DNA from: an uncultured bacterium
GTDB taxonomy: Bacteria; Eisenbacteria; RBG-16-71-46
NCBI GenBank assembly: GCA_964655175.1
Contig: CAZZLY010000004.1
Span: forward strand, 15,465-79,464
DNA length: 64,000 nucleotides
Direction: 5' to 3'
Made by a program: the position numbers and the translations under genes. Position 1 is the stretch's first letter, and the number at the start of each line of letters is the position of its first letter. Of the stretch, positions 4,634 through 61,803 are shown piece after piece. Below the pieces are notes generated by a model. The model was given only the letters and a program-made list of their open reading frames with translations, did not search any database and was not told the DNA's origin.

Positions 4634-4637
4634 CGCC

Positions 4638-10075: not shown

Positions 10076-11514
10076 GCCTGCGCGACTCGCTGCGCAAGCT
10101 GTCGGGCGAATCGCTCGTGTACGGCCTCGGGCAGGTGAGCGGCCGCGCCGTCAACCTGCTGCTCGTGCCCGTGCTCACGCGCGTGCTGCTCAAGCAGCAG
10201 TTCGGCGTCGCCGAGCTCGTCACCGGTTATTCGGCGAGCCTGCTGCTCGTGCTCGTGTTCGGCATGGACGGCGCGCTCGCGCGGTTCTTCTACCAGCAGG
10301 ACGACCGCGCCGCGCGCGTGCGCATGACATCGTCGTCGTTCCTGTTCCGGCTCGTGACCGGCGGCACGATCGCGGGGCTGCTCGCGGTGGGGGCGGGGCC
10401 GCTCGCCGAACATCTGATGGGCGGCGGCGTCTACGCCAAGTACCTGCGGCTCGGCGCGCTCACGCTGCCGTGCACGCTGCTGGTGTTGTGGTGCAACGAC
10501 GTGCTGCGCGTCACGTTCCAGCCGTGGAAGTTCGTCACGCTCAACGTCACGCAGACCGTGCTCGTGGGTGGGATCACGCTGTATCTGGTGCTCGTGCGGC
10601 AGTTGGGCGTGGTGGGCGTGCTGTACGGCAAGCTCGCGGGCGATGCCCTCGCGGCGCTGCTCGGCGTCGTGCTGTGCCGCCATCACATCCGGCCCGCGTT
10701 CGACCCCGCGATCCTGCGTCGCATGCTCGCGTACGGGGTGCCGCTCGTGCCGGTGGCGTTCGCGTACGGTGTGATCGGCTCGGTGGACCGGTGGGCGCTG
10801 CAGCGGTTCGCGTCGCTCGACGAGGTCGGCACCTACGCGCTCGCGATCAAGTTCTTCGCCGTCGTGACCATGGGCGTGTCGGCGTTCCAGTTGGCGTTCA
10901 TGCCGTTCGCGTTCGCGCGTGCCCAGGACCCGGAGGCGCCGCGGCTGTACGCGCGCGTGCTGGGGCTGTACGTGGCGATCGCCACCGCCGGGGCGCTCGC
11001 CTGCGGCCTGCTGGCGCCGCTCGGCATCCAGTTGCTGGCCACCCGCGACTACGCCGCGGCCTCGCGTCCCGCGCTCTGGCTGGCCTTTGCCGCGGTCGCG
11101 CAGGGCGCCTATTATGTGGCCGCTCTGGGCATCAACCTGTCCCTCCGCAACGGCCTGCTCGGGGTCTCGGCGGGACTCGCCGCGCTGCTCGCGGCGGTCG
11201 CGAACGTGGTCCTGGTGCCGCGCCTGGGCGCGGAGGGGGCGGCGATCGCGACGTTCGCGGGCTACACGGCGTCGGCGGTGTTCACCTACGGCCTCGCGCA
11301 ACGCGTGTATCCGCTGCCGTACCGCGGGGCACGGCTCGCGGTGCTGTTCGGAGTGGGAGTGGCGATCGGCGCCGTCGCGGTGCGCTTCGCCCCGGCCGGT
11401 GTCGCCGGGGTGGGGTGGCGCATCGCGGCGCTCGCGGCCTACGCGCTGCTCGCCTGGAAGAGTGACGTGTGGAAGGACCGAGGCGCGATCCGGCACCGGC
11501 CGGCATCGGCCTGA
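10072..11514 (+). CDS. wzx: Wzx-type oligosaccharide flippase (MOP/polysaccharide biosynthesis protein family)
   Basis: Polytopic with about 12 to 14 TM helices. N-terminal SGESLVYGLGQVSGRAVNLLLVPVLTR is typical of the Polysacc_synt family. Confidence 0.75.
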   Translation: MSLRDSLRKLSGESLVYGLGQVSGRAVNLLLVPVLTRVLLKQQFGVAELVTGYSASLLLVLVFGMDGALARFFYQQDDRAARVRMTSSSFLFRLVTGGTIAGLLAVGAGPLAEHLMGGGVYAKYLRLGALTLPCTLLVLWCNDVLRVTFQPWKFVTLNVTQTVLVGGITLYLVLVRQLGVVGVLYGKLAGDALAALLGVVLCRHHIRPAFDPAILRRMLAYGVPLVPVAFAYGVIGSVDRWALQRFASLDEVGTYALAIKFFAVVTMGVSAFQLAFMPFAFARAQDPEAPRLYARVLGLYVAIATAGALACGLLAPLGIQLLATRDYAAASRPALWLAFAAVAQGAYYVAALGINLSLRNGLLGVSAGLAALLAAVANVVLVPRLGAEGAAIATFAGYTASAVFTYGLAQRVYPLPYRGARLAVLFGVGVAIGAVAVRFAPAGVAGVGWRIAALAAYALLAWKSDVWKDRGAIRHRPASA

Positions 11515-11535: not shown

Positions 11536-13611
11536 ATGTGCGGCATCGCGGGACTCTATGACCGACACGGACGCGCGGACCTGGGTCGCCTGCAGGCCAT
11601 GTCGCATCTGCTGCGCCATCGCGGCCCCGACGACGAGGGCATGGTGCAGATCGACGCCCTCGGTGGGCAGTCGTTCACGCACGGCGGCGCCGACACGCCG
11701 AGCGCGGTGTTCCGCTCCGGGCTGCCGTGGGCGCCGGGGCAGGCGCGCGGCGAGTCGCGCACCGCGTCTTACGGTGTGGCGCTGGCGCACCGCCGCCTGT
11801 CGATCGTGGATCTGGAGCCCACGGGTCACCAGCCCATGTGCGACCCGCAGGCCCGCCACTGGATCGTGTTCAACGGCGAGGTCTACAACCACGTCGAGCT
11901 GCGCGCCGAACTCGAGCAGAAGGGCGTGAAGCTGGTGGGCAAGAGCGACACCGAGGTGATCCTGGCCGCCTACCGCACGTGGGGCGAGGACTGCCTGTCG
12001 CACTTCAACGGCATGTTCGCGCTCGCGATCTGGGACGCCGACCGCCGCCATCTGTTCTGCGCGCGCGACCGCATGGGCGTGAAGCCGTTCTACTACCAGT
12101 TCGACGGCTCGTCGTTCGCGTTCGCCTCCGAGGCGAGCGCGCTGGTGCTCACGCAGTCGTGGCGCATCCAGCCGCACCTGCCCGCGGTGCGCGACCTGCT
12201 CGCGCTCGACTGGGTGGACCACGAGACGCACACGTTCTTCCAGGGCACGCAGCAGCTGCCCGCCGGCCACTGGCTCACGGTGGGTGAGGACGGCCTGCGC
12301 GTCGCGCGCTGGTGGGGACTCGACCCCGAGCGTCGCGCGAGCGGCACGAGCGCGGATCTCGCGCAGCAGTTCGGCGAGCTGTTCACCGACGCGGTCAAGC
12401 TGCGCCTGCGCGCCGACGTCGAGGTGGGTTCGTGCCTGTCGGGCGGCCTCGATTCCAGCGCGGTGGTCACCACCGCGGCGAAGCTCGCCCCCAAGGGCCT
12501 GCACGCGTTCACCTGTGCCTACGACGAGGGCCCGGCCTTCGACGAGCGCCCGTACGTGCGCGCCGTCGCGGAGGCGAGCGGTGCCTCGTCGCACGTCACC
12601 GTGCCGGACGGCGGCGACCTGTGGAGCGTGATCGATGCGCTCGCCGCCGAGCAGGGTGAACCCACCGCGGGCCCGGGCGTGTACTCGCAGTGGCACGTCA
12701 TGAAGCTGGCGCGCGAGAAGGGCCTCAAGGTCCTGCTCGACGGTCAGGGCGGCGACGAGACCCTGGCGGGCTACTTCCGTTATCTGCCCACGCGCCTGCG
12801 CGACCTGGCGGTCGCGGGGCAGTGGGGCGAGTTCGGTCGTCTGTGGGGGCCGGTGACCGACAAGCTCGGCGTCGGCACCGTGGCGCTGCACACGTTCGAG
12901 CCGTTCCTGCCGGGCCCGCTCGTGGCCGCGCTGCGCCGTCGCTACGGGCAGGGCAAGGATCGCGTGCTCTCGAGCGCGCTGCGCAAGGTGGGCTCGCACG
13001 CGCCGCACGTGCACGGCTCGTCGCGTTCGGCCCTGTGGGACCAGCTCGCGTTCGACGTCACCGTGCGTCAGCTGCCGAGCCTGCTGCGTTACGAGGATCG
13101 CAGCAGCATGGCGTTCGGCATCGAGACGCGTCTGCCGTTCCTGGATTACCGCCTCGTGGAGTTCGCGTTCTCGCTGCCCGACACGGCGCGGCTCGACGGC
13201 ACCACGACCAAGGCCATCGCGCGCCGTGCGCTCGGCGACCGCGTCCCCAAGAGCGTGCTCGAGCGTCGCGACAAGATGGGCTTCGAGACGCCCACGGACC
13301 TGTGGCTGCGCGGTCGTCACGCGGCCGAGCTGCGCGCCCGACTCACGCGCCGTGGCCCGTTCCAGGACTGGGTCGATCCGGCGGTCGTGCAGGCGTCGCT
13401 CGACGACTACCTCGCGGGCCGTCGCGCCATCGGGCTGCAGATCTGGCGCTGGCTGTCGCTCGAGGCGTGGTCGCAGCACTGGCTCGCGCGCGATCCGCGG
13501 GTGACCGGTCGACCGCTCGGCACCTCGATCCACGCCGGTCAGCACGTCGGCTACGTCGAGGCGGTGGAGCGACTCGAGTCCGACCTCGCGGCGGGCGTGT
13601 ACGCCGGCTGA
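11536..13611 (+). CDS. asnB: Asparagine synthase (glutamine-hydrolysing) family amidotransferase
   Basis: N-terminal MCGIAG (Cys2 nucleophile). ...FNGEVYNH...; SGGLDSS PP-loop motif. Confidence 0.9.
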   Translation: MCGIAGLYDRHGRADLGRLQAMSHLLRHRGPDDEGMVQIDALGGQSFTHGGADTPSAVFRSGLPWAPGQARGESRTASYGVALAHRRLSIVDLEPTGHQPMCDPQARHWIVFNGEVYNHVELRAELEQKGVKLVGKSDTEVILAAYRTWGEDCLSHFNGMFALAIWDADRRHLFCARDRMGVKPFYYQFDGSSFAFASEASALVLTQSWRIQPHLPAVRDLLALDWVDHETHTFFQGTQQLPAGHWLTVGEDGLRVARWWGLDPERRASGTSADLAQQFGELFTDAVKLRLRADVEVGSCLSGGLDSSAVVTTAAKLAPKGLHAFTCAYDEGPAFDERPYVRAVAEASGASSHVTVPDGGDLWSVIDALAAEQGEPTAGPGVYSQWHVMKLAREKGLKVLLDGQGGDETLAGYFRYLPTRLRDLAVAGQWGEFGRLWGPVTDKLGVGTVALHTFEPFLPGPLVAALRRRYGQGKDRVLSSALRKVGSHAPHVHGSSRSALWDQLAFDVTVRQLPSLLRYEDRSSMAFGIETRLPFLDYRLVEFAFSLPDTARLDGTTTKAIARRALGDRVPKSVLERRDKMGFETPTDLWLRGRHAAELRARLTRRGPFQDWVDPAVVQASLDDYLAGRRAIGLQIWRWLSLEAWSQHWLARDPRVTGRPLGTSIHAGQHVGYVEAVERLESDLAAGVYAG

Positions 13612-13615: not shown

Positions 13616-14740
13616 TTGGACCTGCTCGTCCTCTCGGAGGTGCGCTGGGGCTACTTCCGCACGCGGAAGCAGTTCCTGCTCTCGCGGTTCCCGGAGCCCT
13701 GGCGCATCTTCTTCGCCCAGCCGCCGGCGTTCGGTTCCGACGACCCGTGGGAGCCGCGACAGGAGGGGCGGGTCACCGTGTTCACGGTGCCGTTCCTCAA
13801 GCCCGGCACGACGAGCCCGCTGTACAACCGCGTCGCGGCCACCGCGCCCGGACGGGCCCTGATCGAGGGGGTGGCCGAGGTCTGGCTGACCCGGATGCTG
13901 GCCCGGCTCGGGGTGGACCCCGAGCCCGTGGTGCTGGCGTCCAACATCTACGCGCCCGCACTCCTTTCGCGGCTCCGTAAGAAACTGGTACTCTACGACT
14001 TCAACGACCATCCGCTGCAGTTCGCGGCCTCGCCGACGTGGGCGCCGCCGTACCTCCAGCGCACCCTCGCGCAGGCGCAGGGGGTGTTCGTGGTCTCGGA
14101 GTACTACCGCCGCACCCTGGCCGCGGAGACCGACCGTCCCTTGATCCTGCTCGGCAACGGAGTCGAGATGGCGCATTTCGAGGCGCCCCGCACCCTGCCC
14201 GCCGACCTCGCCGCCCTGCCGCGGCCGCGGATCGGCTACGTCGGGCTGCTCTCGCACTTCCTGGACTTCGAGCTGCTCGAGTCGCTGCGCCGGAACCGGC
14301 GCGGGGGCACCGTGGTACTGGTGGGGCCGGGCAGTCCCGCGACCGACGCGGCGGTGGCCGAGTTCGCGCGCCGCGAGGGCGTCGCCGTGCTGGGCCCGCG
14401 CCCGTACGCCGACGTGCCGGCCTACATGCAGGGCCTCGACGTGGGCGTCATCCCGTTCCGTGCCGCCGATCCGTTCGTGCAGGGCATCAATCCCAACAAG
14501 GTGTACCAGTACCTCGCCGCCGGTCTGCCCGTGATCACGACGCCGCTGCTCGACCTCGCCCCGAGCGCCCCCGACCTGCTGTTCGCGGGGACGCCCGACG
14601 AGGTCGCGGTCGCGTTGGGGCAGGCGCTCGACGCGCAGGCCGACCCCGCACGGCGGCGCGCGCTCGCGCGTCCGCACGACTGGGACGTGCTGGCCGCGCG
14701 CATGGTGGCCGAGATCGAAGCGCGACTCGCCGTCGCCTGA
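13616..14740 (+). CDS. GT4 glycosyltransferase (TuaH-like)
   Basis: GT-B C-terminal domain (IGYVGLLSHFLDFELL...GPRPYADVPAYMQGLDVGVIPF...NKVYQYLAAGLPVITTP). TTG start at 13616, so the start is uncertain. Confidence 0.7.
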   Translation: MDLLVLSEVRWGYFRTRKQFLLSRFPEPWRIFFAQPPAFGSDDPWEPRQEGRVTVFTVPFLKPGTTSPLYNRVAATAPGRALIEGVAEVWLTRMLARLGVDPEPVVLASNIYAPALLSRLRKKLVLYDFNDHPLQFAASPTWAPPYLQRTLAQAQGVFVVSEYYRRTLAAETDRPLILLGNGVEMAHFEAPRTLPADLAALPRPRIGYVGLLSHFLDFELLESLRRNRRGGTVVLVGPGSPATDAAVAEFARREGVAVLGPRPYADVPAYMQGLDVGVIPFRAADPFVQGINPNKVYQYLAAGLPVITTPLLDLAPSAPDLLFAGTPDEVAVALGQALDAQADPARRRALARPHDWDVLAARMVAEIEARLAVA

Positions 14741-14761: not shown

Positions 14762-17248
14762 ATGAGCCACGCCGACCCCCGCAAGACCTCCCGCAAGAGC
14801 GGACCCACCACGACGCGCCGTGCTGTTGCGCCCGCGTCCGGCGGCTTCACGCTGACGACCGGTGTGGTCGCCGCGCTGCTCGGGCTGCTGACGGTGATCT
14901 TCTTCCGCGAGGTCGTGTTCGCGGGCCGCACGTTCGTCTCGCCCGACGCCACCGCGCCGCTCGGGTTCGTGCGCATCGGTGAGCTGTCGCTGTGGAAGGA
15001 TCACGTCTATCCGCTGTGGAACCCGTTCACGTTCCTCGGCATGCCGTCGTTCGGTTCGGGCGCTTACAACCCGCTCATCTACCCGCCCGATTGGCCGCTC
15101 GCGCTGGTGCAGAAGGTGCTGCCGCTGCCCGAGATGACGTGGCTGCTGCTCTACTACTTCCTGGGCGCGTTCTTCATGTGGCAGCTGGCGCGCGAGTGGG
15201 GCGCGCGCAGCGAGGCCGCGCTGGTCGCGGCGTTGGCGTTCGTGTTCCAGCCCAACCTGATCGCGGTCGGCGTGCACGGTCACGGCAGTCAGCTCGTGGA
15301 CTCGGCCTATCTGCCGCTCATGCTGTGGCTCGCCTCGCGCTGGCTGCGCGCCGGGCGCACGCCGGATCTGGGTTGGCTCGCGCTCGCGGGCGGCTTCCAG
15401 TTCCTGCGCGGTCACGTGCAGATCTGCTTCTACACGTGGATGGCGATCGGCCTGTACGCGCTGGTGCAACTCGTGCGCGGCGTGCGCACGGACGAGCGCA
15501 ACACCGTGATCGTGCGCGTGCTCGCGCTGGGCGCGGCCGCGGCGCTCGCGTTCGGCGTGGCGGGCGTGTACAACCTGCCGCTCAAGGACTACGCGCAGTA
15601 CTCCATGCGTGCCTCGGCCGCCGGCGGGGGCGCGCCGCTCGAGTACGCGACCTCGTGGAGCATGGCGCCCTACGAACTGCCGAGCCTCGTGTTCCCCAAC
15701 TTCGTCGGCTTCGGCGGACAGGGGTACTGGGGCGGGATGCCGTTCACGGACTACCCGAACGGCTTCATCGGCGTGATCATCGCGCTGCTCGCGATCGTCG
15801 GCTTCGTCGCGCGCGGCACCTCGACGCCGGGCGCCAAGCCGTTCGCGATCGGGCTCGGCGTGCTCGCGCTGCTCGTGGCGATGGGCAAGAACATGCCGCT
15901 GTACGCGGTGCTCTACGACCACCTGCCGATGTTCAACAAGTTCCGCATCCCGGTCATGATCCTGATCCTGTTCCAGTTGGCGACCGCGCTCGCGGCCGCC
16001 TGGGGCTGGACCGCGCTGACGCGACCCGCGAGCAAGGGCGGGCGCGACGCGGTGGACACGGCGCTGCTCGTGTGCGCGGGGCTGCTCGCGCTGTGCGGCG
16101 TGCTCGGCGTGTTCGTGGGCGAGGGGCTGCGGCCGTGGTACGTGAATCAGGCGCTGTCGCACAATCCGCAGTTCCCGGGCGAGTTCGCGCGCGGCATCTT
16201 CCCGCTGTTCCTCGGTGACCTGCGCGGGGTGGCGTTCCTGGGCCTCGCCGTGGTCGCGGTGGCGTGGTTCACGCGTCGCGGCACGCTGTCCGCGTTCGTG
16301 GGCTCGGGGATCGTGCTCGTGCTGCTGCTCGTCGAACTGTGGCCGATCAGCACGCAGGTCATGGCGCCGACGATCGGCGACCCGGTCACGCGCAACACCG
16401 ATCAGGGCCGCGACGACGTCATCCAGTGGCTCGAGCAGAACGCCGGGCCGGCGGGGACGTACCGCGTGTTCTATCCCGAGTCCGAGTGGTTCCAGGACAA
16501 TCGCGCCGCGGGCTTCGGCATCGCGGTGACCGGTGGGCGGCACTCCGCCAAGACGCGGCTGTGGCAGGAACTCAGCGACCGCCGTGCGTTCTACCAGTTG
16601 CCGTGGAACGCGCTCCTCAACACGCGCTACTGGGTGTTCTCGCGTCCGTTCTCGCCGCAGGACGTCCCGGCGGGCTGGGCCGACATGCTCGAGCAGGTCT
16701 ACGTGGGCGCGTCCGGCGTCGTGTACCGGTTCCGGCTCGCGATGCCGCGCGCCATGCTCGTGGGCTCGTGGACCGTCGTGCCCGACACGGGCACCGCGGT
16801 GATCGATTCGGTGGCCGCGGTCGAGCGCAACATCGCCTCGCACACCTACCTCACTCAGGACCCGGGCATCCCGTCGGGGGCGGCCGATTCGGTCGGCACC
16901 GCCACGATCACCGAGTACGGCCTGCACCGCGTCGCGATCACCACCGAGGGCTCGCGCCCGGCGGTGCTGCGGCTCGCCGACCTGTACTACCCCGACTGGC
17001 GGGTGACGGTCGACGGCAAGGCGTCGCCGCTGCTGCGTGCGGATCACGCGCTGCGCGGTGTCGCGGTGCCCGCGGGACGACACGAGGTCGTGTTCACGTT
17101 CCACTCGGGCGCGTTCACGCTCGGACTGTGGACCTCGATCGTCAGTGCCGCGATCGCCGTGGCCCTGTTGCTGCTGGGCCTGCGTCGGCGCGTCGAGCCG
17201 GCCGCGGCGGCGAGCGACGCGGCGAGCGGGGAGGGGGCGACCGCCTGA
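14762..17248 (+). CDS. YfhO-family GT-C membrane glycosyltransferase
   Basis: 828 aa polytopic N-terminal domain plus large extracytoplasmic C-terminal domain. YfhO-like hallmarks (NPFTFLGMPSFG, QFLRGHVQICFYTWM) and a late TM helix near the C-terminus. Confidence 0.7.
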   Translation: MSHADPRKTSRKSGPTTTRRAVAPASGGFTLTTGVVAALLGLLTVIFFREVVFAGRTFVSPDATAPLGFVRIGELSLWKDHVYPLWNPFTFLGMPSFGSGAYNPLIYPPDWPLALVQKVLPLPEMTWLLLYYFLGAFFMWQLAREWGARSEAALVAALAFVFQPNLIAVGVHGHGSQLVDSAYLPLMLWLASRWLRAGRTPDLGWLALAGGFQFLRGHVQICFYTWMAIGLYALVQLVRGVRTDERNTVIVRVLALGAAAALAFGVAGVYNLPLKDYAQYSMRASAAGGGAPLEYATSWSMAPYELPSLVFPNFVGFGGQGYWGGMPFTDYPNGFIGVIIALLAIVGFVARGTSTPGAKPFAIGLGVLALLVAMGKNMPLYAVLYDHLPMFNKFRIPVMILILFQLATALAAAWGWTALTRPASKGGRDAVDTALLVCAGLLALCGVLGVFVGEGLRPWYVNQALSHNPQFPGEFARGIFPLFLGDLRGVAFLGLAVVAVAWFTRRGTLSAFVGSGIVLVLLLVELWPISTQVMAPTIGDPVTRNTDQGRDDVIQWLEQNAGPAGTYRVFYPESEWFQDNRAAGFGIAVTGGRHSAKTRLWQELSDRRAFYQLPWNALLNTRYWVFSRPFSPQDVPAGWADMLEQVYVGASGVVYRFRLAMPRAMLVGSWTVVPDTGTAVIDSVAAVERNIASHTYLTQDPGIPSGAADSVGTATITEYGLHRVAITTEGSRPAVLRLADLYYPDWRVTVDGKASPLLRADHALRGVAVPAGRHEVVFTFHSGAFTLGLWTSIVSAAIAVALLLLGLRRRVEPAAAASDAASGEGATA

Positions 17249-17964
17249 TGGAGAAGCTCGTCATCATCCCCACCTACAACGAGGTCGAGAACATCGACGT
17301 CCTGCTCGAGCGATTGCTCGCGCTGCCGTACGGGCTCGACGTGCTCGTGGTGGATGACGGCTCGCCCGACGGCACGGCCGACCACGTCAAGGCGTGGCAG
17401 GCCAGGTCCTCGCGCGTCCATCTGCTGCAGCGGCCCGGTAAGATGGGGCTGGGCTCGGCGTACCGCGACGGCTTCCGTTACGCGCTGGCGAACGGTGCCG
17501 AGTACATCTTCGAGATGGATGCGGATTTCTCGCACGACCCGGATGCGATCGGCGACTTCCTCGAGGCCGCCAAGGACGCCGACATCGTGCTCGGCTCGCG
17601 CTATCTGCACGGCGTGACGGTCGTGAACTGGCCGTTGTCGCGACTGATCCTGTCGTACTCGGCCAACGTCTACACGCGCATCATCACGGGCATGCCGCTC
17701 GCCGATGCCACGGGTGGTTTCAAGTGCTTCCGTCGGCGTGCGCTCGAGGGCATCCGGCTCGACCGCGTCAAGACCGAGGGCTACGGCTTCCAGATCGAGA
17801 TGTCGTTCCGCTGCTGGAAGCGCGGCTTCCGCATCAAGGAGATCCCGATCGTGTTCGTGGATCGTCGCGCGGGCGTCTCCAAGATGAACAAGAAGATCGT
17901 GTATGAGGCCGCCGGGTTGGTGTGGAAGCTTCGGTTGCTCGACCTGTTGGGGCGCCTCGAATGA
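17248..17964 (+). CDS. Polyprenol-phosphate mannose synthase (Ppm1/DPM1-like GT2)
   Basis: MEKLVIIPTYNEVENI...VVDDGSPDGT...EMDADFSHDP...GFKCFRR. Soluble DPM1-type architecture, 238 aa. Confidence 0.85.
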   Translation: MEKLVIIPTYNEVENIDVLLERLLALPYGLDVLVVDDGSPDGTADHVKAWQARSSRVHLLQRPGKMGLGSAYRDGFRYALANGAEYIFEMDADFSHDPDAIGDFLEAAKDADIVLGSRYLHGVTVVNWPLSRLILSYSANVYTRIITGMPLADATGGFKCFRRRALEGIRLDRVKTEGYGFQIEMSFRCWKRGFRIKEIPIVFVDRRAGVSKMNKKIVYEAAGLVWKLRLLDLLGRLE

Positions 17965-20261
17965 ACCGCCTGCGCGGACTCCTGCTCGGGATCGTGCTCG
18001 GCCTCGCGGTCGCGCCCGCCGTGCGCGCCCAGGGCCAGTGGTCCACCTATCTGCACATGGCCTCGTGCAACGACCTGCTGCCGCTGCGCGACACGGTCTG
18101 GGTCGCCACCGGCGAGGCGGGCCTGCTGCGCTACGTGCGCAGTCAGGACGCGTGGAGCTCGATCACGCGCGAGCCGAGCGGGCTGGCGAACAACAACGTC
18201 ACCGCGATCCGCTTCGATCGCAGCGGCAACCTGTTCTGCGCCGTGCCGGGCAAGGGCGTGAGCCGCCTCGACACCGACGGGCGCTGGTCGCTGCTCAACG
18301 CCTTCGACGGTCTGCCCTCCGACACCGTGCTCACCATGCGAGCGCAGGGCGACTCCATGTGGATCGGCACGACGCGCGGGCTCGCGCTGTGGGACGGCAA
18401 CACGGTCGCGGGTTCGATCCCCGACCTCGGCACGCCGTCGCCGTTCGTGGACGACCACATCAACGGCTTCGCGATCGTCGGCGACAGCGTGTTCGTGAGC
18501 TCGCCGGTGGCCGTCTACCTGGGGCTCTTGTCGCAGCGGCTCGCCAACTGGAAGCGGTTCGACACCGGGCTGCCGATCGGCGCGGCGCGCAACATCCGCG
18601 GCCTGGCGACCGACGGGCACGACGTGCTGGCGTTGGCGAGCGGGTTCAATCCGCAGAACCCCGTGCAGGGCGTGTACACCAGCTTCCGCTGGTTCAAGCG
18701 CGACTCGGTCTGGATCAGCGACTTCCCGTCGTTCTCGAGCGTCCGGCGGTTGCGCGACGACTTCGGCATCGTGCTCGCGACGACCGCGGGCGGCGGCGTG
18801 TTCCGGCATCGCAACGGCGGCGGCTGGGACGCGGTCGCCAACTCGCCCAGCACCGACAACGCCGATCTCGCCCTGCTCGACGTGGCGGCCGATCCCGACG
18901 GCAAGGTGTTCGCCTCCACGGGCGGCGTGCTCCTGGAGGAAGCGCCGAGCGTGTGGACCGTGCGCACCCCGCCCGGCCCCGTGGCCAACAACAGCCGCAA
19001 CGTGCTGTGGGCGAACGGTTCGGTGTACGTCTCGTACGCGGGCGAGGGCGTGAGTCGTCTGCGCGCCGGCCAGTGGCGCAACTACCGCGCTTCCGTGGGC
19101 TGCGTCGGGGCGGGCTGTGACACCACGTTCGAGAACGTCGCGTTCCCCGCCGGCATGGGACTCGATCCGCTGGGACGCAAGTGGGTGAGCAACTGGTCGG
19201 GCCCGCTCACGCGCATCGACGACGAGGTCTCGCCGCCGAGCTTCGGGAACTTCACGTGGGCCGCGTCGTCCGACCCCTCGCTGCAGCATCTGCACTCGTG
19301 CATCCACGCCATCGCCGCCGACGGTCGCGACGGGGCGGCCTCGGGCATGTGGATGGGCCTCGACTCGGACATCATCGGGTGCAGCGGCTGTTCGACGGGC
19401 GACCCGCAGGGCATCGACCTGTACGACCTCGCGGGCAACTTCATCCGCAACTACGGGCTCACCTATCCGGGGATCAAGAACGGCCTCGTGCGCGGGCTCG
19501 AGTACGACGCGCGCACCGGCCGCATGTGGGTGGGCTACAAGCAGAGCGGTCTCTCGACCTTCCTCGTCGAGGGCGCGCTCGGCAGCGACATCGCGCTCGA
19601 CGACGTGACCGCCGCGGGCGACCTCGACGTGTTCGGTGTCGCCCTGCACGGCGACTCGCTGTGGGTGCTCGCGTCCGAGGGTCTGCGTCGCTTCCGCGCG
19701 TCGAGCCAGTCGCTCGCGGCCTCGTTCACGATCGCCGCGCCGCCCGTGCTCGCGGGCATGCACCCGATCGACACCGCGCCCGACGGCAGTGTGTACGTGG
19801 GCACCGAGGGCGGGCTGCGCGTGTACCGTCGCGGCCAGGCGCCCGTGGACTACACGCCCGACAACTCGCCGCTCGCGGACCTCTCGGTGCGCGCGGTGCG
19901 CGTGGACCCCACCGGCGTCGTGTGGATCGCGACCGCGGGCGGCGTGAACCGCTTCGACCCCAGCTACGTCCCGCCGGCGCCGCCGCGGCTCACGTCGCTC
20001 GCGATCGACCTGTATCCGAACCCGGTCTGGCGCACGGGCGCGGGCTTCACGCTGCGGCTCAAGGGCGGCGGCACGACGTACGGGGGTGAGATCCTCGATC
20101 TGACCGGCCGGGTCGTGCATCGCTTCGCCGCCGACGGCAACGGTCGCGTGATGTGGGACGGCCGCGACGCGGACGGTCGCGGCGTCGAGCCCGGCGTGTA
20201 CTTCGTGCGCGCGCGCAGCGGTGGCGCCGAGGCGACCGCGCGCGTGGTCGTGCTGCGGTAG
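17961..20261 (+). CDS. Secreted beta-propeller (two-component-regulator-propeller-like repeat) protein with T9SS-type C-terminal sorting domain
   Basis: Signal peptide MNRLRGLLLGIVLGLAVAPAVRA|QG. Repeated Reg_prop-like blades (LLRYVRSQDAW, MWIGTTRGLALWDG). The C-terminal roughly 85 aa begin LYPNP and end VYFVRARSGGAEATARVVVLR, matching the T9SS C-terminal domain / FlgD-Ig-like pattern. Confidence 0.7.
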   Translation: MNRLRGLLLGIVLGLAVAPAVRAQGQWSTYLHMASCNDLLPLRDTVWVATGEAGLLRYVRSQDAWSSITREPSGLANNNVTAIRFDRSGNLFCAVPGKGVSRLDTDGRWSLLNAFDGLPSDTVLTMRAQGDSMWIGTTRGLALWDGNTVAGSIPDLGTPSPFVDDHINGFAIVGDSVFVSSPVAVYLGLLSQRLANWKRFDTGLPIGAARNIRGLATDGHDVLALASGFNPQNPVQGVYTSFRWFKRDSVWISDFPSFSSVRRLRDDFGIVLATTAGGGVFRHRNGGGWDAVANSPSTDNADLALLDVAADPDGKVFASTGGVLLEEAPSVWTVRTPPGPVANNSRNVLWANGSVYVSYAGEGVSRLRAGQWRNYRASVGCVGAGCDTTFENVAFPAGMGLDPLGRKWVSNWSGPLTRIDDEVSPPSFGNFTWAASSDPSLQHLHSCIHAIAADGRDGAASGMWMGLDSDIIGCSGCSTGDPQGIDLYDLAGNFIRNYGLTYPGIKNGLVRGLEYDARTGRMWVGYKQSGLSTFLVEGALGSDIALDDVTAAGDLDVFGVALHGDSLWVLASEGLRRFRASSQSLAASFTIAAPPVLAGMHPIDTAPDGSVYVGTEGGLRVYRRGQAPVDYTPDNSPLADLSVRAVRVDPTGVVWIATAGGVNRFDPSYVPPAPPRLTSLAIDLYPNPVWRTGAGFTLRLKGGGTTYGGEILDLTGRVVHRFAADGNGRVMWDGRDADGRGVEPGVYFVRARSGGAEATARVVVLR

Positions 20262-20279
20262 GGCGGTGCGGGGCCACCG

Positions 20280-21299
20280 GTGATCCCCCCGAACGCGGCG
20301 ATCCTCGACCGCGTCCCCGAAGGTTGGGACGCGTTGCTGGCGAGCGACCCCGGCGCCACGCCGGCGCATCGACCGGCGCTGTGGGAGGCGTTCGCGAGCG
20401 CGCTGCCCGGTGTGGCGTGGCGCGTGATCGCGGTGCACGAGGGCGGACGGCTCGCGGGGGGCGCGGCCGTCATGCGCACGCAGCGCGGTCCGTGGCGGGA
20501 GCTGCACGCGCTACCGTGGATGCTGCCCGGTGCGCCGCTCGCCACGCCCGGGACGCACGCGCGCGTGGACCGCGCGGTCGCGCACGGCATCGCCGGACTC
20601 GCGCGTGAGTGGCGCGTGTGCGGCGGGACGTGGTCGCTCTATCGTGCGGACGGTCCCGTGACCGACGAGACGACGCTCGCGCACGTCGCGGGACGCACCC
20701 GGCACGTCGAGACGGCGGTGCTGCCGCTCGGTGCGGGCCTCGAGACGCTGCGCGCCGGGATCGCGCGCAAGCAGCGTCAGGCGCTCGATCAGGCGCTCGC
20801 GCGACCGTTCACGTTCGCCGAGGAGCCCGCCGCGCTCGACGAGGCGTACGCCCTGCATCTCGCGCAGTCGCGCGGTTGGGGACACCATCGGCCGCTGCCG
20901 CTCGAGTTGTCGCGACGACTGCTCGCGGCGCGCGACGCGCACGGTCCCGTCGCGCGGCTGTACACGCTGCGCACCGCGGCGGGGCTGGCCACCGCGACGC
21001 TCGTGCTCGAGGGCGCGCACGAGACGTTCCTGTGGTGGGCGGGCACGCACGTGAGCGCGCGGCGTTCAGGGGCGTTCCTGCGGCTCGTGTGGGAGATCGC
21101 GCGCGTGGCCGAGTCGCAGGGTCGTCGGCGCGTCAATCTGGGCGCCAGTCTCGACCTGCCGTGGGTCGCCGCGTTCAAGCAGTCCCTGGGGGCCGAGGTC
21201 GTGACGCATCCGGTGCGCGTGCTCGACGGTGCGACCGCCCCGTGGCCGCTGCGCGCGTGGGCGGTGCGGCGCGCGGCGCGCATGCTGGGGTCGGCATGA
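20280..21299 (+). CDS. FemAB/GNAT-superfamily (BioF2/CelD-like) acyltransferase
   Basis: Acetyltransf_6-like C-terminal region (LYTLRTAAGLATATLVLEGAHETFLWWAG). GTG start. Weak assignment. Confidence 0.5.
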   Translation: MIPPNAAILDRVPEGWDALLASDPGATPAHRPALWEAFASALPGVAWRVIAVHEGGRLAGGAAVMRTQRGPWRELHALPWMLPGAPLATPGTHARVDRAVAHGIAGLAREWRVCGGTWSLYRADGPVTDETTLAHVAGRTRHVETAVLPLGAGLETLRAGIARKQRQALDQALARPFTFAEEPAALDEAYALHLAQSRGWGHHRPLPLELSRRLLAARDAHGPVARLYTLRTAAGLATATLVLEGAHETFLWWAGTHVSARRSGAFLRLVWEIARVAESQGRRRVNLGASLDLPWVAAFKQSLGAEVVTHPVRVLDGATAPWPLRAWAVRRAARMLGSA

Positions 21300-22375
21300 G
21301 GATCGCCACGCTCGGCAACGCGTCGGTGGGACACACCGTGAACTGGGTGTCGTGGTTCCGTGCGCAGGGTCACGAGGTGCGGCTGTTCTCGCTCGAGCCC
21401 GCGCCCGCGGGATTCCCCGACGTCACCCCGCTGCCCGCCGCCTCGCTGCCGGGCGTGCTGCGCTATCCGCTCGCGGTGCCCCGGTTGCGGCGGGAACTCG
21501 CCGCGTTCGCGCCCGACCTCGTGGATGCGCACTACGTGCCCAACTACGGGTTCATGGCCGCGCTCGCGGGCCGCCATCCGCTGTCGATCGCCGCGTGGGG
21601 GAGCGATCTGCTGCTCGCCGCGCACGCGGGCCCGTTGCAGCGCGCCCGTGCGGCGTTCGCGCTCGAGCGTGCCGACCTGGTGATCTGCGACGCCGACAAC
21701 CTGGCGGCCGCCGCACGCCGCGTGGGTGCGCGCGCCGACACGGTGCTCGCCTGTCCGTGGGGCATCGACCGGGCGCGCTTCGTCCCGGCCGCCACGCGCA
21801 CCCCGGGACTGATCGTCTCGACGCGCATGCACGAGGACGTCTACGACCTGCCCACGGTGATCGAGGCGGTCGGCCGCGTGCTCGGTGAGCGACCGCACGC
21901 GACGTTCGTCGCGGTGGGCGACGGTTCGCGTCGTGCGGCCCTCGAACGCCTCGCCGCGGAGCGACTGCCCGCGGGGCGCTGGCGCTTCACGGGCCGGATC
22001 GCGCCCGCCGAGATGGCGGCGCTGCTCGCGCGCGCCGAGGTCGCGATCTCGGCGTCGCGTTCGGATTCCACGTCGCAGTCGCTGCTCGAGAGCATGGCGT
22101 GCGGCGCGGTGCCGGTGGTGAGCGACCTCGAGGGGAACCGCGAGTGGGTCGCCGACGGCGACGGCGCGCGACTGTTCGCGGTGGGCGATGGCGCCGGCGC
22201 GGCGAACGCGCTACGCCAGGTGCTCGACGATGCGGCGTGGGCCGCCACCGCCCGCACGCGCAACGCGGCGGTGGTCGCCGCGCGCGGCGACGCGGGCCGC
22301 AACATGGCGCGCATCGCCGAGGCGTTCGCGCGACTCGTCGCGGACCACGGCCGCCGCGGGGGGCGCACCGCATGA
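21296..22375 (+). CDS. GT4 glycosyltransferase
   Basis: GT-B fold. C-terminal ...SRSDSTSQSLLESMACGAVPVVSDLEGNREWV (E-x7-E region). Confidence 0.8.
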   Translation: MRIATLGNASVGHTVNWVSWFRAQGHEVRLFSLEPAPAGFPDVTPLPAASLPGVLRYPLAVPRLRRELAAFAPDLVDAHYVPNYGFMAALAGRHPLSIAAWGSDLLLAAHAGPLQRARAAFALERADLVICDADNLAAAARRVGARADTVLACPWGIDRARFVPAATRTPGLIVSTRMHEDVYDLPTVIEAVGRVLGERPHATFVAVGDGSRRAALERLAAERLPAGRWRFTGRIAPAEMAALLARAEVAISASRSDSTSQSLLESMACGAVPVVSDLEGNREWVADGDGARLFAVGDGAGAANALRQVLDDAAWAATARTRNAAVVAARGDAGRNMARIAEAFARLVADHGRRGGRTA

Positions 22376-23661
22376 AGCGCCTGCTCGTGATGAGCTACTT
22401 CTATCCGCCGCTCGCGGGCGGCGGCGTGCATCGCGTGCTGGCGTTCACGGATCATCTGCGCGCGCACGGTTGGGCGTGCACCGTGATCTGCGCCGGCGAG
22501 CACGACTACTGGGTGCGCGACCCCTCGCTGTCGGCGCGCGTGCCCGCCGAGACCGAGGTGGTCCGCGTGAGCGGGGGCAGCGCGCTCGCGACGCTGCTGC
22601 GCAGCGGTCGTGCGGCGCGCACCGATGGACGTCGCTCGAGCGCGGGCTTCGCGCTGCTGCGTCCGCTCTCGGAGTGGTTCCTGCTGCCCGATTCGTACGT
22701 GGGCTGGTCGCACCGCGCGGCGCGTGCGGCGGCCGCTCGCGTGGCCCATGGCGACGTCGATGCGATCCTGAGTTCGTCGCCGCCCGACAGCGTGCATCTG
22801 GCCGCGGGCCGGGTGGCGCGCGCGAGCGGGCTGCCGTGGGTCGCCGACTTCCGCGATCCGTGGATCGGGCTCAACTTCAAGCGTCCGCCCACGCCGTGGC
22901 ACGCCGCACGTCAGCGTGCGCTGGAGTCGCGCGTGACCGGCGGGGCGGACCTGGTGCTCGCGGCCTCGCGCACGCACCACGACGAACTCGTCGCGCGGGT
23001 CGAGGGCCGCCCGCGACAGGTGCTGCACCTGCCCAACGGCTTCGAGCCCGCGCCCGAGGCGGCGAGCGAGGCGATGCCGTCGACGCACTTCACCGTGGTG
23101 TTCACCGGGACGTTGTCGGGCATGCGCGACGCGGGCACGCTGCTCGACGCGGTCGACCGCGTCGTGCGCGGGACGCCCGAGGCGCGCGGTCGGCTGCGCG
23201 TCGTGCTCGCCGGACCGCTCGACGATGAATGGCCGAAGCGCGCGCACGCGCTCGGGCTCGACGACGTCGTGCACTGGCCGGGCCCGTTGCCGCACGCCGC
23301 GACGCGGGCGCTGCAGCGTTCCGCCGACGTGCTGCTGCTGTGGAAGCCGCAGGGGGAGGGATTCCGAACCATGGTGCCGGGCAAGACCTACGAGTATCTC
23401 GATAGCGGCCGGCCGGTGGTCGCACTGCTGCCCGCCGGCGACGAGGCGGCCGGGCTCGTCGAACGCGCCGGTGGCACGCGGCTCGAGCCCGGGGACGCCG
23501 CGTCGCTCGCGCGCGAACTGGGGGCACGGTTCCAGCGTTGGCGCGACGGCGAGCGCATCGCCGCCGCGCGGCCCGCGTGGCTCGACGAGCATCGTCGCGA
23601 TCGGCTCGCGGCACGTCTGGCGGAATCACTCGCGGCGCTGCCGTCGCGGGGGCGCGCATGA
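22372..23661 (+). CDS. GT4 glycosyltransferase
   Basis: N-terminal MSYFYPPLAGGGVHR (GT4 N-terminal signature) and C-terminal ...PGKTYEYLDSGRPVV. Confidence 0.75.
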   Translation: MKRLLVMSYFYPPLAGGGVHRVLAFTDHLRAHGWACTVICAGEHDYWVRDPSLSARVPAETEVVRVSGGSALATLLRSGRAARTDGRRSSAGFALLRPLSEWFLLPDSYVGWSHRAARAAAARVAHGDVDAILSSSPPDSVHLAAGRVARASGLPWVADFRDPWIGLNFKRPPTPWHAARQRALESRVTGGADLVLAASRTHHDELVARVEGRPRQVLHLPNGFEPAPEAASEAMPSTHFTVVFTGTLSGMRDAGTLLDAVDRVVRGTPEARGRLRVVLAGPLDDEWPKRAHALGLDDVVHWPGPLPHAATRALQRSADVLLLWKPQGEGFRTMVPGKTYEYLDSGRPVVALLPAGDEAAGLVERAGGTRLEPGDAASLARELGARFQRWRDGERIAAARPAWLDEHRRDRLAARLAESLAALPSRGRA

Positions 23662-25178
23662 CCGGGACGCGACTCGAGCGCGCGGCGTGGCTCGTCGCGC
23701 TGCTGTTGTGCGCGGGGCTCGCGTGGCCGCTGCGCGACTACGTCACCGACGACACGTTCATCCATCTGCAGTACGCGAAGCATCTGGCGGCCGGGCAGGG
23801 CTTCGTGTTCAACCCGGGCGAGCCCGTCTACGGCAGCACCAGTCCGCTCTGGGTCATGGCGCTCGCGACCGGCATGGCCATGGGGATCGAGGGCCTGCTC
23901 GTCTCCAAACTGCTCGGTGCGCTCGCCACGCTGGCGGCGCTGTTCCTGTGGTGGCGACTCGCGCAGCAGACGATCGCCGACGCGCGCCTGCGCGCACTGT
24001 CGCTGGTGGTCTGGGCCGCGCACGCGTGGATGTCGCGCTGGTCGCTCTCGGGCATGGAGACGCCGCTCGCGGTCGCGCTCGTGCTGGGCGGTTGGGTGGC
24101 GTACACCGCCACCGAGCGTTGGGGCGAACGGCCGCACGCGGCGGCACTGCTGTGGGCGCTCGCGGCGCTCACCCGGCCCGAGTGCACGCTGCTGCTCGTG
24201 CTGTGGGCGGGGCTGCTCGTCGTGCAGCACGGGCCGCTCGAGGGCGCGCGCCGTGCGCTGCGCGGATTGTGGCCGGCCATGCTCGTCGAGGGCGCGTGGC
24301 TCGCGTTCGCACGGGTGTACTTCGGATCGTTCTGGCCCAACACGCTGGCGGCGAAGGCGGCCGGTGGGGTGGGGCTGGCGTACCACCTCGAGCAGTGGCT
24401 GCGGCAGGGCGCGATCGTCGGGGCGACCGATGCGACGCTGCTGCTCGTGCTCGTCGTGTCGGGGGTCGTGCTCGTGCGACGCGGCGGGCCTCGCACGGCC
24501 ACGCCGTGGACGCACGCGTTGCCGTGGGCCTGGCTCGTGCTCGTGCCCGTGCTGTATTCGCTGCGCGGGGTGCCGGTGCTGTCGCGCTATCTCGTGCCGC
24601 TGCTGCCGGTGCTGGCGTGGCTCGGGTGGTGCTCGCTCGACCGCGCGCTCGTCGGCGCGCGCGCGCGTACGGTCGTCACGATCGCCGGGTTCGTCACGGT
24701 GATCGCGGTGGCGCAGAACGTCGTCGCGTGGCAGCGCCTCGTGCGACCGCAGGTGACGTCGTTCAGCGCGGGCATGCGCGCGAGCCTCATCCCGTGGGGC
24801 CACTGGTTCGAGCGTCACGCCGCACCCGATGCGATGATCGCCGCGCCCGACATCGGTGCGCTCGGTTACTACGGGCAGCGGCGCGTGCTCGACCTGGCGG
24901 GGCTCGTCACGCCCGCGATGGTGCCGGTGCTCGAGCGCATGCCGCAGGAGGACGCGACCGCGCGCTTCGCGTTCGAGTCGTTCGCGCGACCCGAGTTCCT
25001 GGTCGATCGCGCGCCGCGCGCGTGGGATCTGCTCGAGCGCAGTCCGTGGCGTGCGGCGCTCGTGCCCATCGGGCAGGCGTCGCTGCCCAATCTGGGCGTG
25101 GCGCGCCCGGATTCCGCGGTCTATTCGTTCTATCGCATCGATTGGGCGCAGTACGATTCGCTCGCGATGCAGCGCTGA
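23658..25178 (+). CDS. Polytopic GT-C-like membrane glycosyltransferase (ArnT/PMT_2/arabinosyltransferase-like)
   Basis: About 11 TM helices. First-loop acidic motif YVTDDTFIH. C-terminal extracytoplasmic domain. Last gene of the co-directional cluster. Confidence 0.6.
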   Translation: MTGTRLERAAWLVALLLCAGLAWPLRDYVTDDTFIHLQYAKHLAAGQGFVFNPGEPVYGSTSPLWVMALATGMAMGIEGLLVSKLLGALATLAALFLWWRLAQQTIADARLRALSLVVWAAHAWMSRWSLSGMETPLAVALVLGGWVAYTATERWGERPHAAALLWALAALTRPECTLLLVLWAGLLVVQHGPLEGARRALRGLWPAMLVEGAWLAFARVYFGSFWPNTLAAKAAGGVGLAYHLEQWLRQGAIVGATDATLLLVLVVSGVVLVRRGGPRTATPWTHALPWAWLVLVPVLYSLRGVPVLSRYLVPLLPVLAWLGWCSLDRALVGARARTVVTIAGFVTVIAVAQNVVAWQRLVRPQVTSFSAGMRASLIPWGHWFERHAAPDAMIAAPDIGALGYYGQRRVLDLAGLVTPAMVPVLERMPQEDATARFAFESFARPEFLVDRAPRAWDLLERSPWRAALVPIGQASLPNLGVARPDSAVYSFYRIDWAQYDSLAMQR

Positions 25179-25402: not shown

Positions 25403-25852
25403 ATGGCGACGTTTCTCGGCACCGAGAACTACTCGATCGACGACAAGAACCGTCTTGTCGTGCCGGCGGGTATGCGTCGCGTCACCGGTCACAAGGAGCC
25501 CCTCAAGGATTTCGTGCTGATGCGGGGACTCGACGGCTGCATCTGGTTGTACGCCGAAGAGGATTGGAAGCGCCTCGAGGAACTGCTTCAGCGGTTGTCG
25601 ACGGGGAACAAGGACCAGCGCATGTTCGCGAGGACGGCGTTGGTCGGTGCGAACAAGGTGACGGTGGATAAGCAGGGACGCATCACGATCACACCGTCAC
25701 TGATGGACCATGCAGGTCTCCGCAAGGATGCGGTTCTGCATGGTCAGGTCGGACGCATCGAGCTGTGGTCGCCGGAACGGTTCCAGCAGGCGCTGGTCGG
25801 CGACGCGGCGGACTTCGATGCACTGGGCGAGAAGGTCCTGGGAGGCGAATGA
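25403..25852 (+). CDS. mraZ: Transcriptional regulator MraZ
   Basis: Duplicated MraZ/AbrB-like halves with DxxxR motifs (SIDDKNRLVVPAGMRR and TVDKQGRITI). Confidence 0.9.
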   Translation: MATFLGTENYSIDDKNRLVVPAGMRRVTGHKEPLKDFVLMRGLDGCIWLYAEEDWKRLEELLQRLSTGNKDQRMFARTALVGANKVTVDKQGRITITPSLMDHAGLRKDAVLHGQVGRIELWSPERFQQALVGDAADFDALGEKVLGGE

Positions 25853-26310
25853 TGATCGCGCAGACGCTGCCCCGCGATCCGCGGACGTCGGTGGCCATGA
25901 ACCTGCAGCTCACGCGGGGCCGTCACGGCGCCGCGGCGAGGCTGGAGGTGCACGAGCGCCCCGTCGGTCGCGTGGGCCTGCTCGCACTGCGCGGTTGGGT
26001 GGACCTGTCGGCGGCGCAGGGGATCGAGCGCGTGCTCGACGACCTCGCGGTGCGCGGCGTGTCGCGCCTCGTGGTGGACTGCTCGCAGTTGCTGCACGTG
26101 GACTACCGGCTCGTGCCGCGGCTCGCCGAGGCGCTGACGCGCTTCGAGGCGCGCACCGGCGTGGTCGTCATGTGCGGTCTGTCGCGCTACCTGCGCGACC
26201 TGTTCCGGATCGCGGGTTGCGAGTCGCGCCTGTGCTGCTGGCCGAACGCCTCGGACCTGCTGGAGGCCGCTCCCGCGGCCGCGGACTTCGGGTGTGAGCG
26301 CGCGTCATGA
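25849..26310 (+). CDS. STAS-domain protein (anti-sigma-factor-antagonist fold) inserted between mraZ and rsmH
   Basis: ATG overlaps the mraZ stop (ATGA) and the 3' end overlaps the rsmH start by 17 nt. STAS-like pattern ...RVGLLALRGWVDLSAAQGIERVLDDLAVRGVSRLVVDCSQLLHVDYRLVPRLAEALTRFEARTGVVVMCGLSRYLRDLFRIAGCE. The canonical phosphorylatable Ser of the SpoIIAA DSSG motif is replaced (VDYRL). The ORF exactly fills the 440 nt mraZ-rsmH gap. Confidence 0.6.
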   Translation: MMIAQTLPRDPRTSVAMNLQLTRGRHGAAARLEVHERPVGRVGLLALRGWVDLSAAQGIERVLDDLAVRGVSRLVVDCSQLLHVDYRLVPRLAEALTRFEARTGVVVMCGLSRYLRDLFRIAGCESRLCCWPNASDLLEAAPAAADFGCERAS

Positions 26311-27648: not shown

Positions 27649-27754
27649 TCCGATCCGTCGGACATCCGAGGATCGGCCCGTTGGGGGGCCGCGCCTCAGC
27701 ACCGCGCAAGTGGGTCGGCGGCCTGCGTGAACCGCCGTTCCAAGGAGGGAACAG

Positions 27755-32825: not shown

Positions 32826-32828
32826 CGC

Positions 32829-37583: not shown

Positions 37584-37584
37584 C

Positions 37585-61793: not shown

Positions 61794-61803
61794 GGAGACC
61801 GCC

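Follow-up and report, generated by a model that had tools for sequence, protein, structure and literature searches.

A distant PorZ-like protein encoded within a conserved glycan operon of Eisenbacteria

In Porphyromonas gingivalis, PorZ is found on the cell surface as part of the T9SS (type IX secretion system) attachment complex and retains its own C-terminal domain, or CTD (PMC5121618, PMC8545088). It binds the anchor lipopolysaccharide (LPS) and delivers it to the sortase PorU (PMC8545088). The protein considered here is encoded at positions 17961–20261 of a 64,000-nucleotide stretch of DNA from an uncultured bacterium of the Eisenbacteria (contig CAZZLY010000004.1), referred to below as the window; its gene lies in a large glycan operon, and all features are on the plus strand unless stated otherwise. 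As judged from structure prediction and profile comparison, its product is distantly related to PorZ: it shares the architecture and the fold of PorZ and falls below the threshold of the PorZ equivalog model.

The sugar to which P. gingivalis attaches its T9SS cargo has been described in some detail. Cargo is amide-linked to 2-N-seryl-3-N-acetylglucuronamide (PMC7468200, PMC13086638). The amino acid of this linking sugar is added by VimA, which matches TIGR03019, and its amide comes from the AsnB-like enzyme WbpS, whose gene comes directly after porR and porS (wzx) (PMC7468200). VimF, a glycosyltransferase of family GT4, is thought to transfer the linking sugar (PMC7468200, PMC13086638), and a revision of the anchor glycan's structure is as recent as 2026 (PMC13086638). 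A related chemistry was proposed by Veith et al. (2020) for the exopolysaccharide (EPS) loci that accompany PEP-CTERM proteins, which would make an amino-acid-modified sugar for protein attachment. According to reviews, T9SS may occur in several phyla of the Fibrobacterota-Chlorobiota-Bacteroidota (FCB) group beyond Bacteroidota (PMC11285876).

A search for relatives of the window protein found 213, and profile A1 was built from 39 of them; nearly all of the 120 relatives listed are 740–790 residues long and cover the whole query. The protein itself has 766 residues. Its N terminus, MNRLRGLLLGIVLGLAVAPAVRA followed by QG, reads by eye as a Sec signal peptide (residues 1–24, 17961–18032), and the AlphaFold2 (AF2) model shows a helix at residues 4–15 with a low N-terminal predicted local distance difference test (pLDDT) score. 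Cleavage at VRA/QGQ (18030–18038) would expose an N-terminal Gln, as in the Bacteroidetes Q-rule; this Gln shows no conservation in the family consensus. Two Reg_prop-type β-propellers follow (residues ~25–668, 18033–19964; PF07494, 2.3e-11), with all-β blades in the model, as the first-pass annotation had recognized in calling this a β-propeller protein. A Pro-rich linker (residues 669–682, SYVPPAPPRLTSLA, 19965–20006), with the family consensus PxYxPPPPPxLPxL in alignment A1 and a dip in pLDDT to 72, leads to a T9SS type-A-like CTD (residues 683–766, 20007–20258). In alignment A1 the Cys pairs CxxxxC and CxxC are conserved and many Trp residues are invariant, features that fit an extracytoplasmic sugar-binding protein.

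Comparison with PorZ extends over the whole chain. The top NCBIfam score belongs to NF052228 (PorZ, type IX secretion system anionic LPS delivery protein), at 57.9 bits, and because residues 630–752 pair with model positions 623–741 of 757, the protein and the model are co-linear in length. All 39 relatives match NF052228, which is the best-scoring of the few NCBIfam families reported, and ten relatives scanned singly score 53.6–97.6 bits, always over the last blade and the CTD. Profile A1 matches the PorZ structure (5m11_A) at 3.3e-25 in three co-linear stretches, at 186–442, 419–507 and 602–728, the CTD included. A full-length AF2 model built from the A1 alignment (pLDDT 89.2; predicted template modeling score, pTM, 0.82) was compared by Foldseek with 350,542 PDB chains; PorZ (5M11) ranked first (E 5.8e-27), with template modeling (TM) scores of 0.59/0.60 over the full length, whereas the propellers of hybrid two-component system (HTCS) sensors gave only 0.33–0.36. 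A Bacteroidota PorZ profile was assembled from C-terminal fragments retrieved with PorZ residues, one of which is named PorZ by NCBI, and hhalign aligned it with A1 at 99.5% probability (E 4.2e-23, 264 columns) up to the last residue. Since these fragments are C-terminal, the evidence for homology of propeller 1 is confined to the Foldseek match and the weak co-linear hidden Markov model (HMM) stretches. In the model and the profiles alike, two β-propellers and a CTD succeed one another in a PorZ-like arrangement within a single chain of ~760 residues. Beyond carrying a CTD, the chain looks like a structural counterpart of PorZ rather than generic cargo, given the 5M11 match, the NF052228 matches and the hhalign result; this likeness suits the first-pass idea of a cargo-anchor glycan.

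The CTD carries the motifs YPNP, WDGRD, GVYFVR and RVVVLR, and the only Pfam matches in the protein are Reg_prop, SGL, FlgD_ig and Por_Secre_tail. TIGR04183 passes marginally, at 23.4 bits against a cut-off of 23 (residues 684–764), and FlgD_ig fails at 20.1 bits against 27. Of 39 full-length homologues, 38 match the same TIGR04183 model at E ≤ 1e-3, the best of them at 4.4e-10, and nine of the ten relatives scanned singly exceed the cut-off (range 19–37 bits), so the match is not due to chance. A model of the CTD by itself (pLDDT 94.9) folds into a seven-stranded immunoglobulin (Ig)-like β-sandwich with a conserved final strand, as in solved CTDs. Its first three Foldseek matches in the PDB are the CTD of PorZ (TM 0.75, 27% identity), NucA (8glk_D, translocon-bound) and PorU (6za2), with the mirolase CTD at rank 16 and FlgD at rank 20. 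These results agree with the first-pass assignment of the C terminus as a T9SS-type CTD; of the profiles proposed there as a check, TIGR04183 lies above its cut-off, whereas PF18962 and FlgD_ig lie below theirs.

Only one other CTD is found in the window, on the minus-strand gene at 47178–48962. Its product comprises a signal peptide, DUF6851 (4.1e-40), a vanadium-haloperoxidase-like helical bundle (VCPO_2nd, 1.2e-16) and a T9SS type-A CTD (47181–47414), as assigned with Pfam and NCBIfam. By eye, the signal peptides of both CTD proteins are of the basic-hydrophobic-AxA type. In this second protein, otherwise unrelated to the first, the CTD reaches both curated cut-offs (PF18962, 27.0 bits, equal to the cut-off of 27; TIGR04183, 27.3 bits, cut-off 23), which upholds the earlier claim that the window holds a second protein with a related CTD.

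The gene for the PorZ-like protein belongs to an operon of 19 genes (1031 to 25178) that includes 13 predicted glycosyltransferases and a Wzx flippase and whose junctions are mostly 4-nt overlaps. Its placement in a glycan cluster was thus correctly described, as one tightly packed operon; its placement next to the flippase was not, wzx (10072–11514) lying 6.4 kb and four genes upstream. The flippase is of the Wzx-type multidrug/oligosaccharidyl-lipid/polysaccharide (MOP) class (Polysacc_synt_3, 9.4e-14; Polysacc_synt, 4.4e-12; HfsF weak). Directly after it comes an AsnB-type glutamine amidotransferase (11536–13611; Asn_synthase, 1.7e-75), which scores 388.5 bits with TIGR03108 (eps_aminotran_1) against a cut-off of 817 and higher, 424.5 bits, with the generic TIGR01536. 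Three genes then lead to the PorZ-like gene: a TuaH-like GT1-type glycosyltransferase (13616–14740; Glyco_trans_1_4; TuaH, 85.5 bits; gene call in L001), a YfhO/PgfM1-like membrane glycosyltransferase of the GT-C type (14762–17248; PF09586 YfhO, 2.9e-9; PgfM1 weak), and a Dpm1/PpgS-like GT2 of the polyprenyl-phosphate sugar synthase type (17248–17964; PF00535, 1e-31; AglJ/PpgS-like in NCBIfam). On the 3′ side, the next gene encodes a putative aminoacyl transferase of the FemAB family, similar to VimA (20280–21299; Acetyltransf_6, 52.8 bits). TIGR03019 (pepcterm_femAB) is matched by all 25 of its orthologues examined, with a best value of 2.8e-14; all those tested score below the cut-off of 260, the window protein at 24.6 bits. 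A profile of the FemAB-like family matches an aminoacyl-tRNA-dependent peptide synthase (9wqy) at 2.8e-13, supporting a Fem-type fold. Two GT4 glycosyltransferases come next, at 21296–22375 (Glyco_trans_1_4, Glycos_transf_1; stp3-like in NCBIfam) and 22372–23661 (Pfam and NCBIfam). By analogy with P. gingivalis, the wzx-asnB and FemAB-GT4 pairs around the PorZ-like gene are the main support for a cargo-anchor glycan.

This gene order is kept across the phylum wherever the contig is long enough. A scan of the family, with one genome per species and ~22 kb around the gene in each, gave 53 loci, about three-quarters labeled Candidatus Eisenbacteria and one situated on a closed 4.16-Mb chromosome; six carry other phylum labels and the rest no phylum name. 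The six, labeled Methylomirabilota (L027), Udaeobacter (L031), Verrucomicrobiia (L036), Limnocylindria (L040), Acidiferrales (L053) and Saccharimonadaceae (L055), are probably mis-binned Eisenbacteria contigs; their gene order is identical and their GC content is 70–73%. NCBI taxonomy lists Candidatus Eiseniibacteriota among unplaced candidate phyla; this phylum is presumed to lie near the FCB group. The conserved order runs methyltransferase, GT1-like, Wzx, AsnB-like, GT1, YfhO-like, GT2 and PorZ-like, followed by FemAB-like, GT4, GT4, GT-C-like and mraZ with the division and cell wall (dcw) cluster. In 50 of 51 loci the PorZ-like gene has GT2 as its immediate 5′ neighbor; the YfhO-like gene is syntenic in 49, and the FemAB-like gene is immediately 3′ in 40 of the 41 loci that reach that far; in the exception, L045, GT4 follows the PorZ-like gene directly and the FemAB-like gene is missing (12259–12294). 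The terminal GT-C-like gene is kept in 33 loci, and at least 30 share the junction between operon and dcw. The cluster is not a variable island of the O-antigen type; its operon is conserved phylum-wide directly upstream of dcw, so it may have other envelope roles. One metagenome-assembled genome, JBGAOB01, holds two contigs (L021, L030), each with the same neighbors and a PorZ-like copy (42% and 41% identical to the query), perhaps through strain mixture or duplication.

Taken with the operon, the PorZ-like fold leads us to favor, tentatively and at somewhat less than even confidence, a glycan shuttle that serves a T9SS-type attachment system and binds a ligand made by its own operon. The product of the operon is the likely partner of the protein because the gene is built into a conserved sugar-synthesis operon. 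The PorZ-like protein would cross the inner membrane via Sec and would be carried across the outer membrane by its CTD, which, as in PorZ, would probably be kept. On the surface, the propellers would bind the glycan or glycolipid built by the operon, and the protein would present it to a PorU-type sortase; the sortase would cut the CTD from cargo, for example the haloperoxidase-like protein of 47178–48962, and join that cargo to the glycan. If the FemAB-like enzyme acts as VimA does, it would put an amino acid on the sugar and so provide the amine that accepts cargo, and the AsnB-like enzyme encoded after wzx may amidate a uronic acid, as WbpS does for the linking sugar of P. gingivalis. A further step, that Eisenbacteria possess a self-contained operon for anchor glycan plus PorZ joined to the cell-division and cell-wall cluster, is unlikely on present evidence. 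More boldly, the PorZ-like protein may be a general outer-membrane glycolipid shuttle that works without a canonical T9SS.

Several observations weigh against the shuttle proposal. The NF052228 scores (57.9 bits; relatives, 53.6–97.6) are far from the equivalog cut-off of 260 bits, and the match is limited to the last blade and the CTD (model positions ~590–757). Identity to PorZ is 16% in the Foldseek alignment, and at the sequence level HTCS sensors (1e-40) outscore PorZ as matches of the propellers. PF18962 fails on the CTD (15.3 bits, cut-off 27), and the core of the domain is a widespread FlgD-Ig-like module that is also found as internal repeats. None of the matches to models for VimA, WbpS and PorZ reaches its curated cut-off, and the trio of FemAB, AsnB and GT4 is also typical of PEP-CTERM EPS loci. 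FemAB-like and AsnB-like enzymes beside dcw could instead modify peptidoglycan, and the YfhO and undecaprenyl-phosphate (Und-P)-sugar GT2 modules resemble the Pgf and CsbB-YfhO glycosylation systems. Family scans of open reading frames (ORFs) in the 64-kb window found no T9SS core genes (PorU/V, SprA, GldKLMN), and none of the scanned window ORFs is a Wbp-pathway aminotransferase or dehydrogenase, a VimE deacetylase of carbohydrate esterase family 4 (CE4), WbaP, Wzy or WaaL; WbpA/B/D/E and WzzP were likewise not seen among them and could lie elsewhere in the genome. A literature search found no report that links Eisenbacteria to T9SS. The earlier suggestion that the cluster builds a cargo-anchor glycan is therefore sustained in part, by the PorZ-like protein and the wzx-asnB and FemAB-GT4 order, whereas the Wbp, VimE, WbaP, Wzy and WaaL functions are not in the window and the supporting matches are below cut-off.

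The best-surviving alternative, unlikely in our estimate and still a serious contender, is that the protein is ordinary T9SS cargo, a double-propeller lectin displayed on or released from the surface, or an assembly factor, organizing or trimming the operon's polymer (a surface glycan layer, for example), with no role in attaching other cargo. A CTD and a signal peptide are what cargo would have, and the PorZ equivalog cut-off is not reached. Median identity across the loci is 42% for the PorZ-like protein versus 80% for GT2, which places it among the least conserved of the block, as expected of an exposed protein; HTCS sensors use double propellers of this kind to bind sugars (PMC5121618). 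Against ordinary cargo, the whole-chain fold and the geometry between domains fit PorZ far better than other solved double propellers, and homology with PorZ extends from the last blades across the linker and the CTD, as far as the final residue. The gene is also single, strictly conserved in position across the phylum, and adjoins the VimA-like gene.

A quite improbable alternative removes T9SS altogether. The protein would then work in the periplasm, binding glycan as a partner of the YfhO/GT-C enzymes and holding or measuring a lipid-linked or nascent polymer during periplasmic glycosylation near the cell-wall machinery, and its C-terminal domain would be a structural module of the FlgD-Ig type. 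Translational coupling to GT2 after YfhO, the abutment of operon and dcw, the sub-threshold PF18962 and FlgD_ig scores and the unproven status of T9SS in Eisenbacteria are all in keeping with this. So is the distribution of the domain: CTD profile A2, searched against 1.84 billion representatives for a PorU-like C25+CTD protein, matches 122,027 cluster representatives at E ≤ 1e-3, and its best 150 matches are giant FlgD-Ig repeat proteins and PorZ-like orthologues. The top matches are proteins of 1,000–4,900 residues bearing 6–20 internal FlgD-Ig-like copies. In a local hmmsearch, 618 internal copies align only to A2 positions ~23–73, at ~16 bits each, and because they match only the profile core, that core is a common FlgD-Ig-like module. 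The 54 terminal copies span A2 positions 1–85, with the full model covered in 52 of 54 as against none of the 618 internal copies; in sequence, terminal copies of the sorting type are set apart by the YPNP strand and the last strand. This distinction speaks against a purely structural module, as do the three best structural matches of the CTD, all T9SS CTDs with FlgD only 20th, the passing of the TIGR04183 cut-off by most relatives, and the presence of the same domain at the end of an unrelated enzyme in the window.

It is highly improbable that the PorZ-like protein is instead a substrate, a surface protein O-glycosylated by a Pgf-like machinery. The operon does contain an epimerase, a PgfS-like GT2 (138 bits) and a PgfM1/YfhO-like GT-C, and the gene comes directly after YfhO and GT2; all scores with Pgf models are, however, far under their cut-offs, 13 predicted glycosyltransferases and a Wzx indicate a polymer, and the protein has no mark of a glycosylation target, its PorZ-like fold being left unexplained. 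A remnant or stand-alone HTCS-like sugar sensor domain has a negligible probability: in sequence, the propellers match the sensor domains of BT4663 and BT3049 most strongly (1e-40), but these matches (4a2l/3v9f) arise only via repeated Reg_prop blades and end before the CTD, the domain content contradicts a sensor (no Y_Y_Y, transmembrane helix, HisKA/HATPase kinase, receiver or AraC; nothing follows the CTD in the ORF), only 18 nt separate the stop from the next gene, full length is kept in nearly all of the 120 relatives listed, and the TM scores are those given above.

The ORF of the PorZ-like protein starts with ATG at 17961 and ends with TAG at 20259–20261, exactly as first annotated, and the start codon and gene call are the same on identical public contigs. 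The ATG shares 4 nt (ATGA) with the TGA of the upstream GT2 gene, which indicates co-expression, and the FemAB-like gene begins 18 nt past the stop. The window has a GC content of 68–75%, so that every frame contains long spurious ORFs. GC by codon position singles out the real frame, that of 17907–20261, at 0.67/0.54/0.94; a 908-residue antisense ORF at 17781–20507, with values of 0.91/0.54/0.70, and similar ORFs were rejected as high-GC artifacts.

Pfam and NCBIfam scans of the upstream half of the operon (1031–10075) identified an epimerase/dehydratase, an ArnC/PgfS-like Und-P-sugar GT2, a sugar-1-phosphate nucleotidyltransferase, an HddA-like heptose kinase (290 bits), a GT4, an LA_3751-family GT-C, a GT2, a methyltransferase and a GT1-like protein. 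The final gene (23658–25178) encodes a polytopic membrane protein, a putative GT-C of the LA_3751 family (weak NF047440). An ORF truncated by the window start (1–1026) ends in tetratricopeptide repeats (TPR_19, 1e-15); its N-terminal part (FPLWYIQQVEGFRKDV...) may resemble GT-C mannosyltransferases of the DUF2723/TMEM260 type. The dcw cluster (25403–42338) starts 224 bp past the operon end, in the order mraZ, a STAS-like ORF, rsmH, ftsL, ftsI, murE, murF, mraY, murD, ftsW, murG, murC, ftsQ, ftsA and ftsZ. MraZ, RsmH, MurE, MurF, MraY, MurG, FtsA and FtsZ are equivalogs above cut-off, FtsW falls just short (332 bits, cut-off 337.5), and ftsL, murD, murC and ftsQ are named by position alone. The ORF in the gap between mraZ and rsmH (25837–26310) resembles STAS proteins and anti-sigma antagonists (TIGR00377, 26.5 bits, below cut-off) and occupies the same spot in 32 Eisenbacteria loci.

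Adjoining the second CTD gene, a minus-strand block (49272–52689) encodes a major facilitator superfamily transporter, a GT4 and a lipid-A-type acyltransferase (PF03279, 1.4e-41). A 160-residue ORF with no family match (52779–53264) lies upstream of a gene for a small GTPase-like protein (53629–54813) that has only a weak Arf match and a Pro/Thr/Glu-rich tail of ~200 residues, and which we take to be MglA-like. At 60894–62700, a MinD/ParA-type ATPase stands beside a sigma-70-family factor, presumably the flagellar regulators FlhG and FliA; if these are correctly read, the genome may encode a true FlgD, a point relevant to the FlgD_ig cross-matches. The PorZ-like protein itself was rejected as a FlgD hook-capping protein: FlgD_ig is sub-threshold, the FlgD equivalogs score 11–15 bits against cut-offs of 230–333, and the FlgD N-terminal domain is absent.

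To our knowledge, PorZ has been known and studied only in Bacteroidota, where the porZ gene gives no clue to the ligand. Here a distant PorZ-like gene is fixed in one operon across a whole uncultured phylum, together with Wzx, WbpS-like and VimA-like proteins and 13 predicted glycosyltransferases. Were the shuttle proposal true, it would give independent gene-neighborhood support to the PorZ-glycan-sortase model, extend T9SS-type surface attachment to a new phylum and supply a small set of genes from which an anchor glycan could be rebuilt. Were the operon self-contained as well, the covalent attachment of CTD proteins to a sugar modified with an amino acid would count, outside Bacteroidota, as an old and core function of the envelope, and the full gene set for anchor glycan and shuttle would be listed in one place. 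If T9SS core genes are absent, the PorZ-like fold and the "sorting" domain would instead have another use.

Among the known systems, the HTCS sensors BT4663, BT3049 and BT4673 share with the PorZ-like protein twin Reg_prop propellers followed by an all-β domain; no other proteins score as high in sequence over the propeller region, and the entry faces of their propellers bind saccharides. Unlike it, they are dimeric and carry Y_Y_Y, a membrane helix and kinase/regulator modules where the PorZ-like protein ends in a CTD, and the modeled domain arrangement superposes poorly on theirs. The CsbB/GtrB-YfhO and streptococcal Pgf systems resemble the operon in their Und-P-sugar GT2, YfhO-type GT-C and epimerase; they decorate Gram-positive teichoic acids or adhesins, whereas the Eisenbacteria modules sit within a 19-gene operon of a high-GC lineage in which an outer membrane is presumed. 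PEP-CTERM/exosortase EPS loci likewise combine a TIGR03019 FemAB, a TIGR03108 amidotransferase and stp2/stp3 GT4s with a protein-sorting theme, but the window has no exosortase or PEP-CTERM protein and its sorting signal is a T9SS-type CTD.

The closest likeness is to P. gingivalis. With PorZ (PG1604, 5M11) the protein differs in sequence (16% identity; 58 bits against a cut-off of 260) and in host, Eisenbacteria being a candidate phylum with no reported T9SS; its setting is a conserved glycan operon next to dcw. The two agree in size (766 versus 776 residues), in the succession of signal peptide, two β-propellers, short linker and 85-residue CTD, in profile homology over the C-terminal ~300 residues to the last strand, and in propellers of a sugar-binding type. 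With respect to the linking-sugar genes, the window has no VimE, WbpA/B/D/E, WbaP, Wzy, WzzP or WaaL, its family matches all score under their cut-offs, and its genes stand in one operon with YfhO/GT-C, an Und-P-sugar GT2 and a heptose-activation pair. In both organisms, wzx is followed directly by an AsnB-type amidotransferase (compare porS-wbpS) and a FemAB-family, TIGR03019-like gene is followed by GT4s (compare vimA-vimE-vimF), and in the Eisenbacteria window all of these lie beside a protein of the T9SS attachment type.

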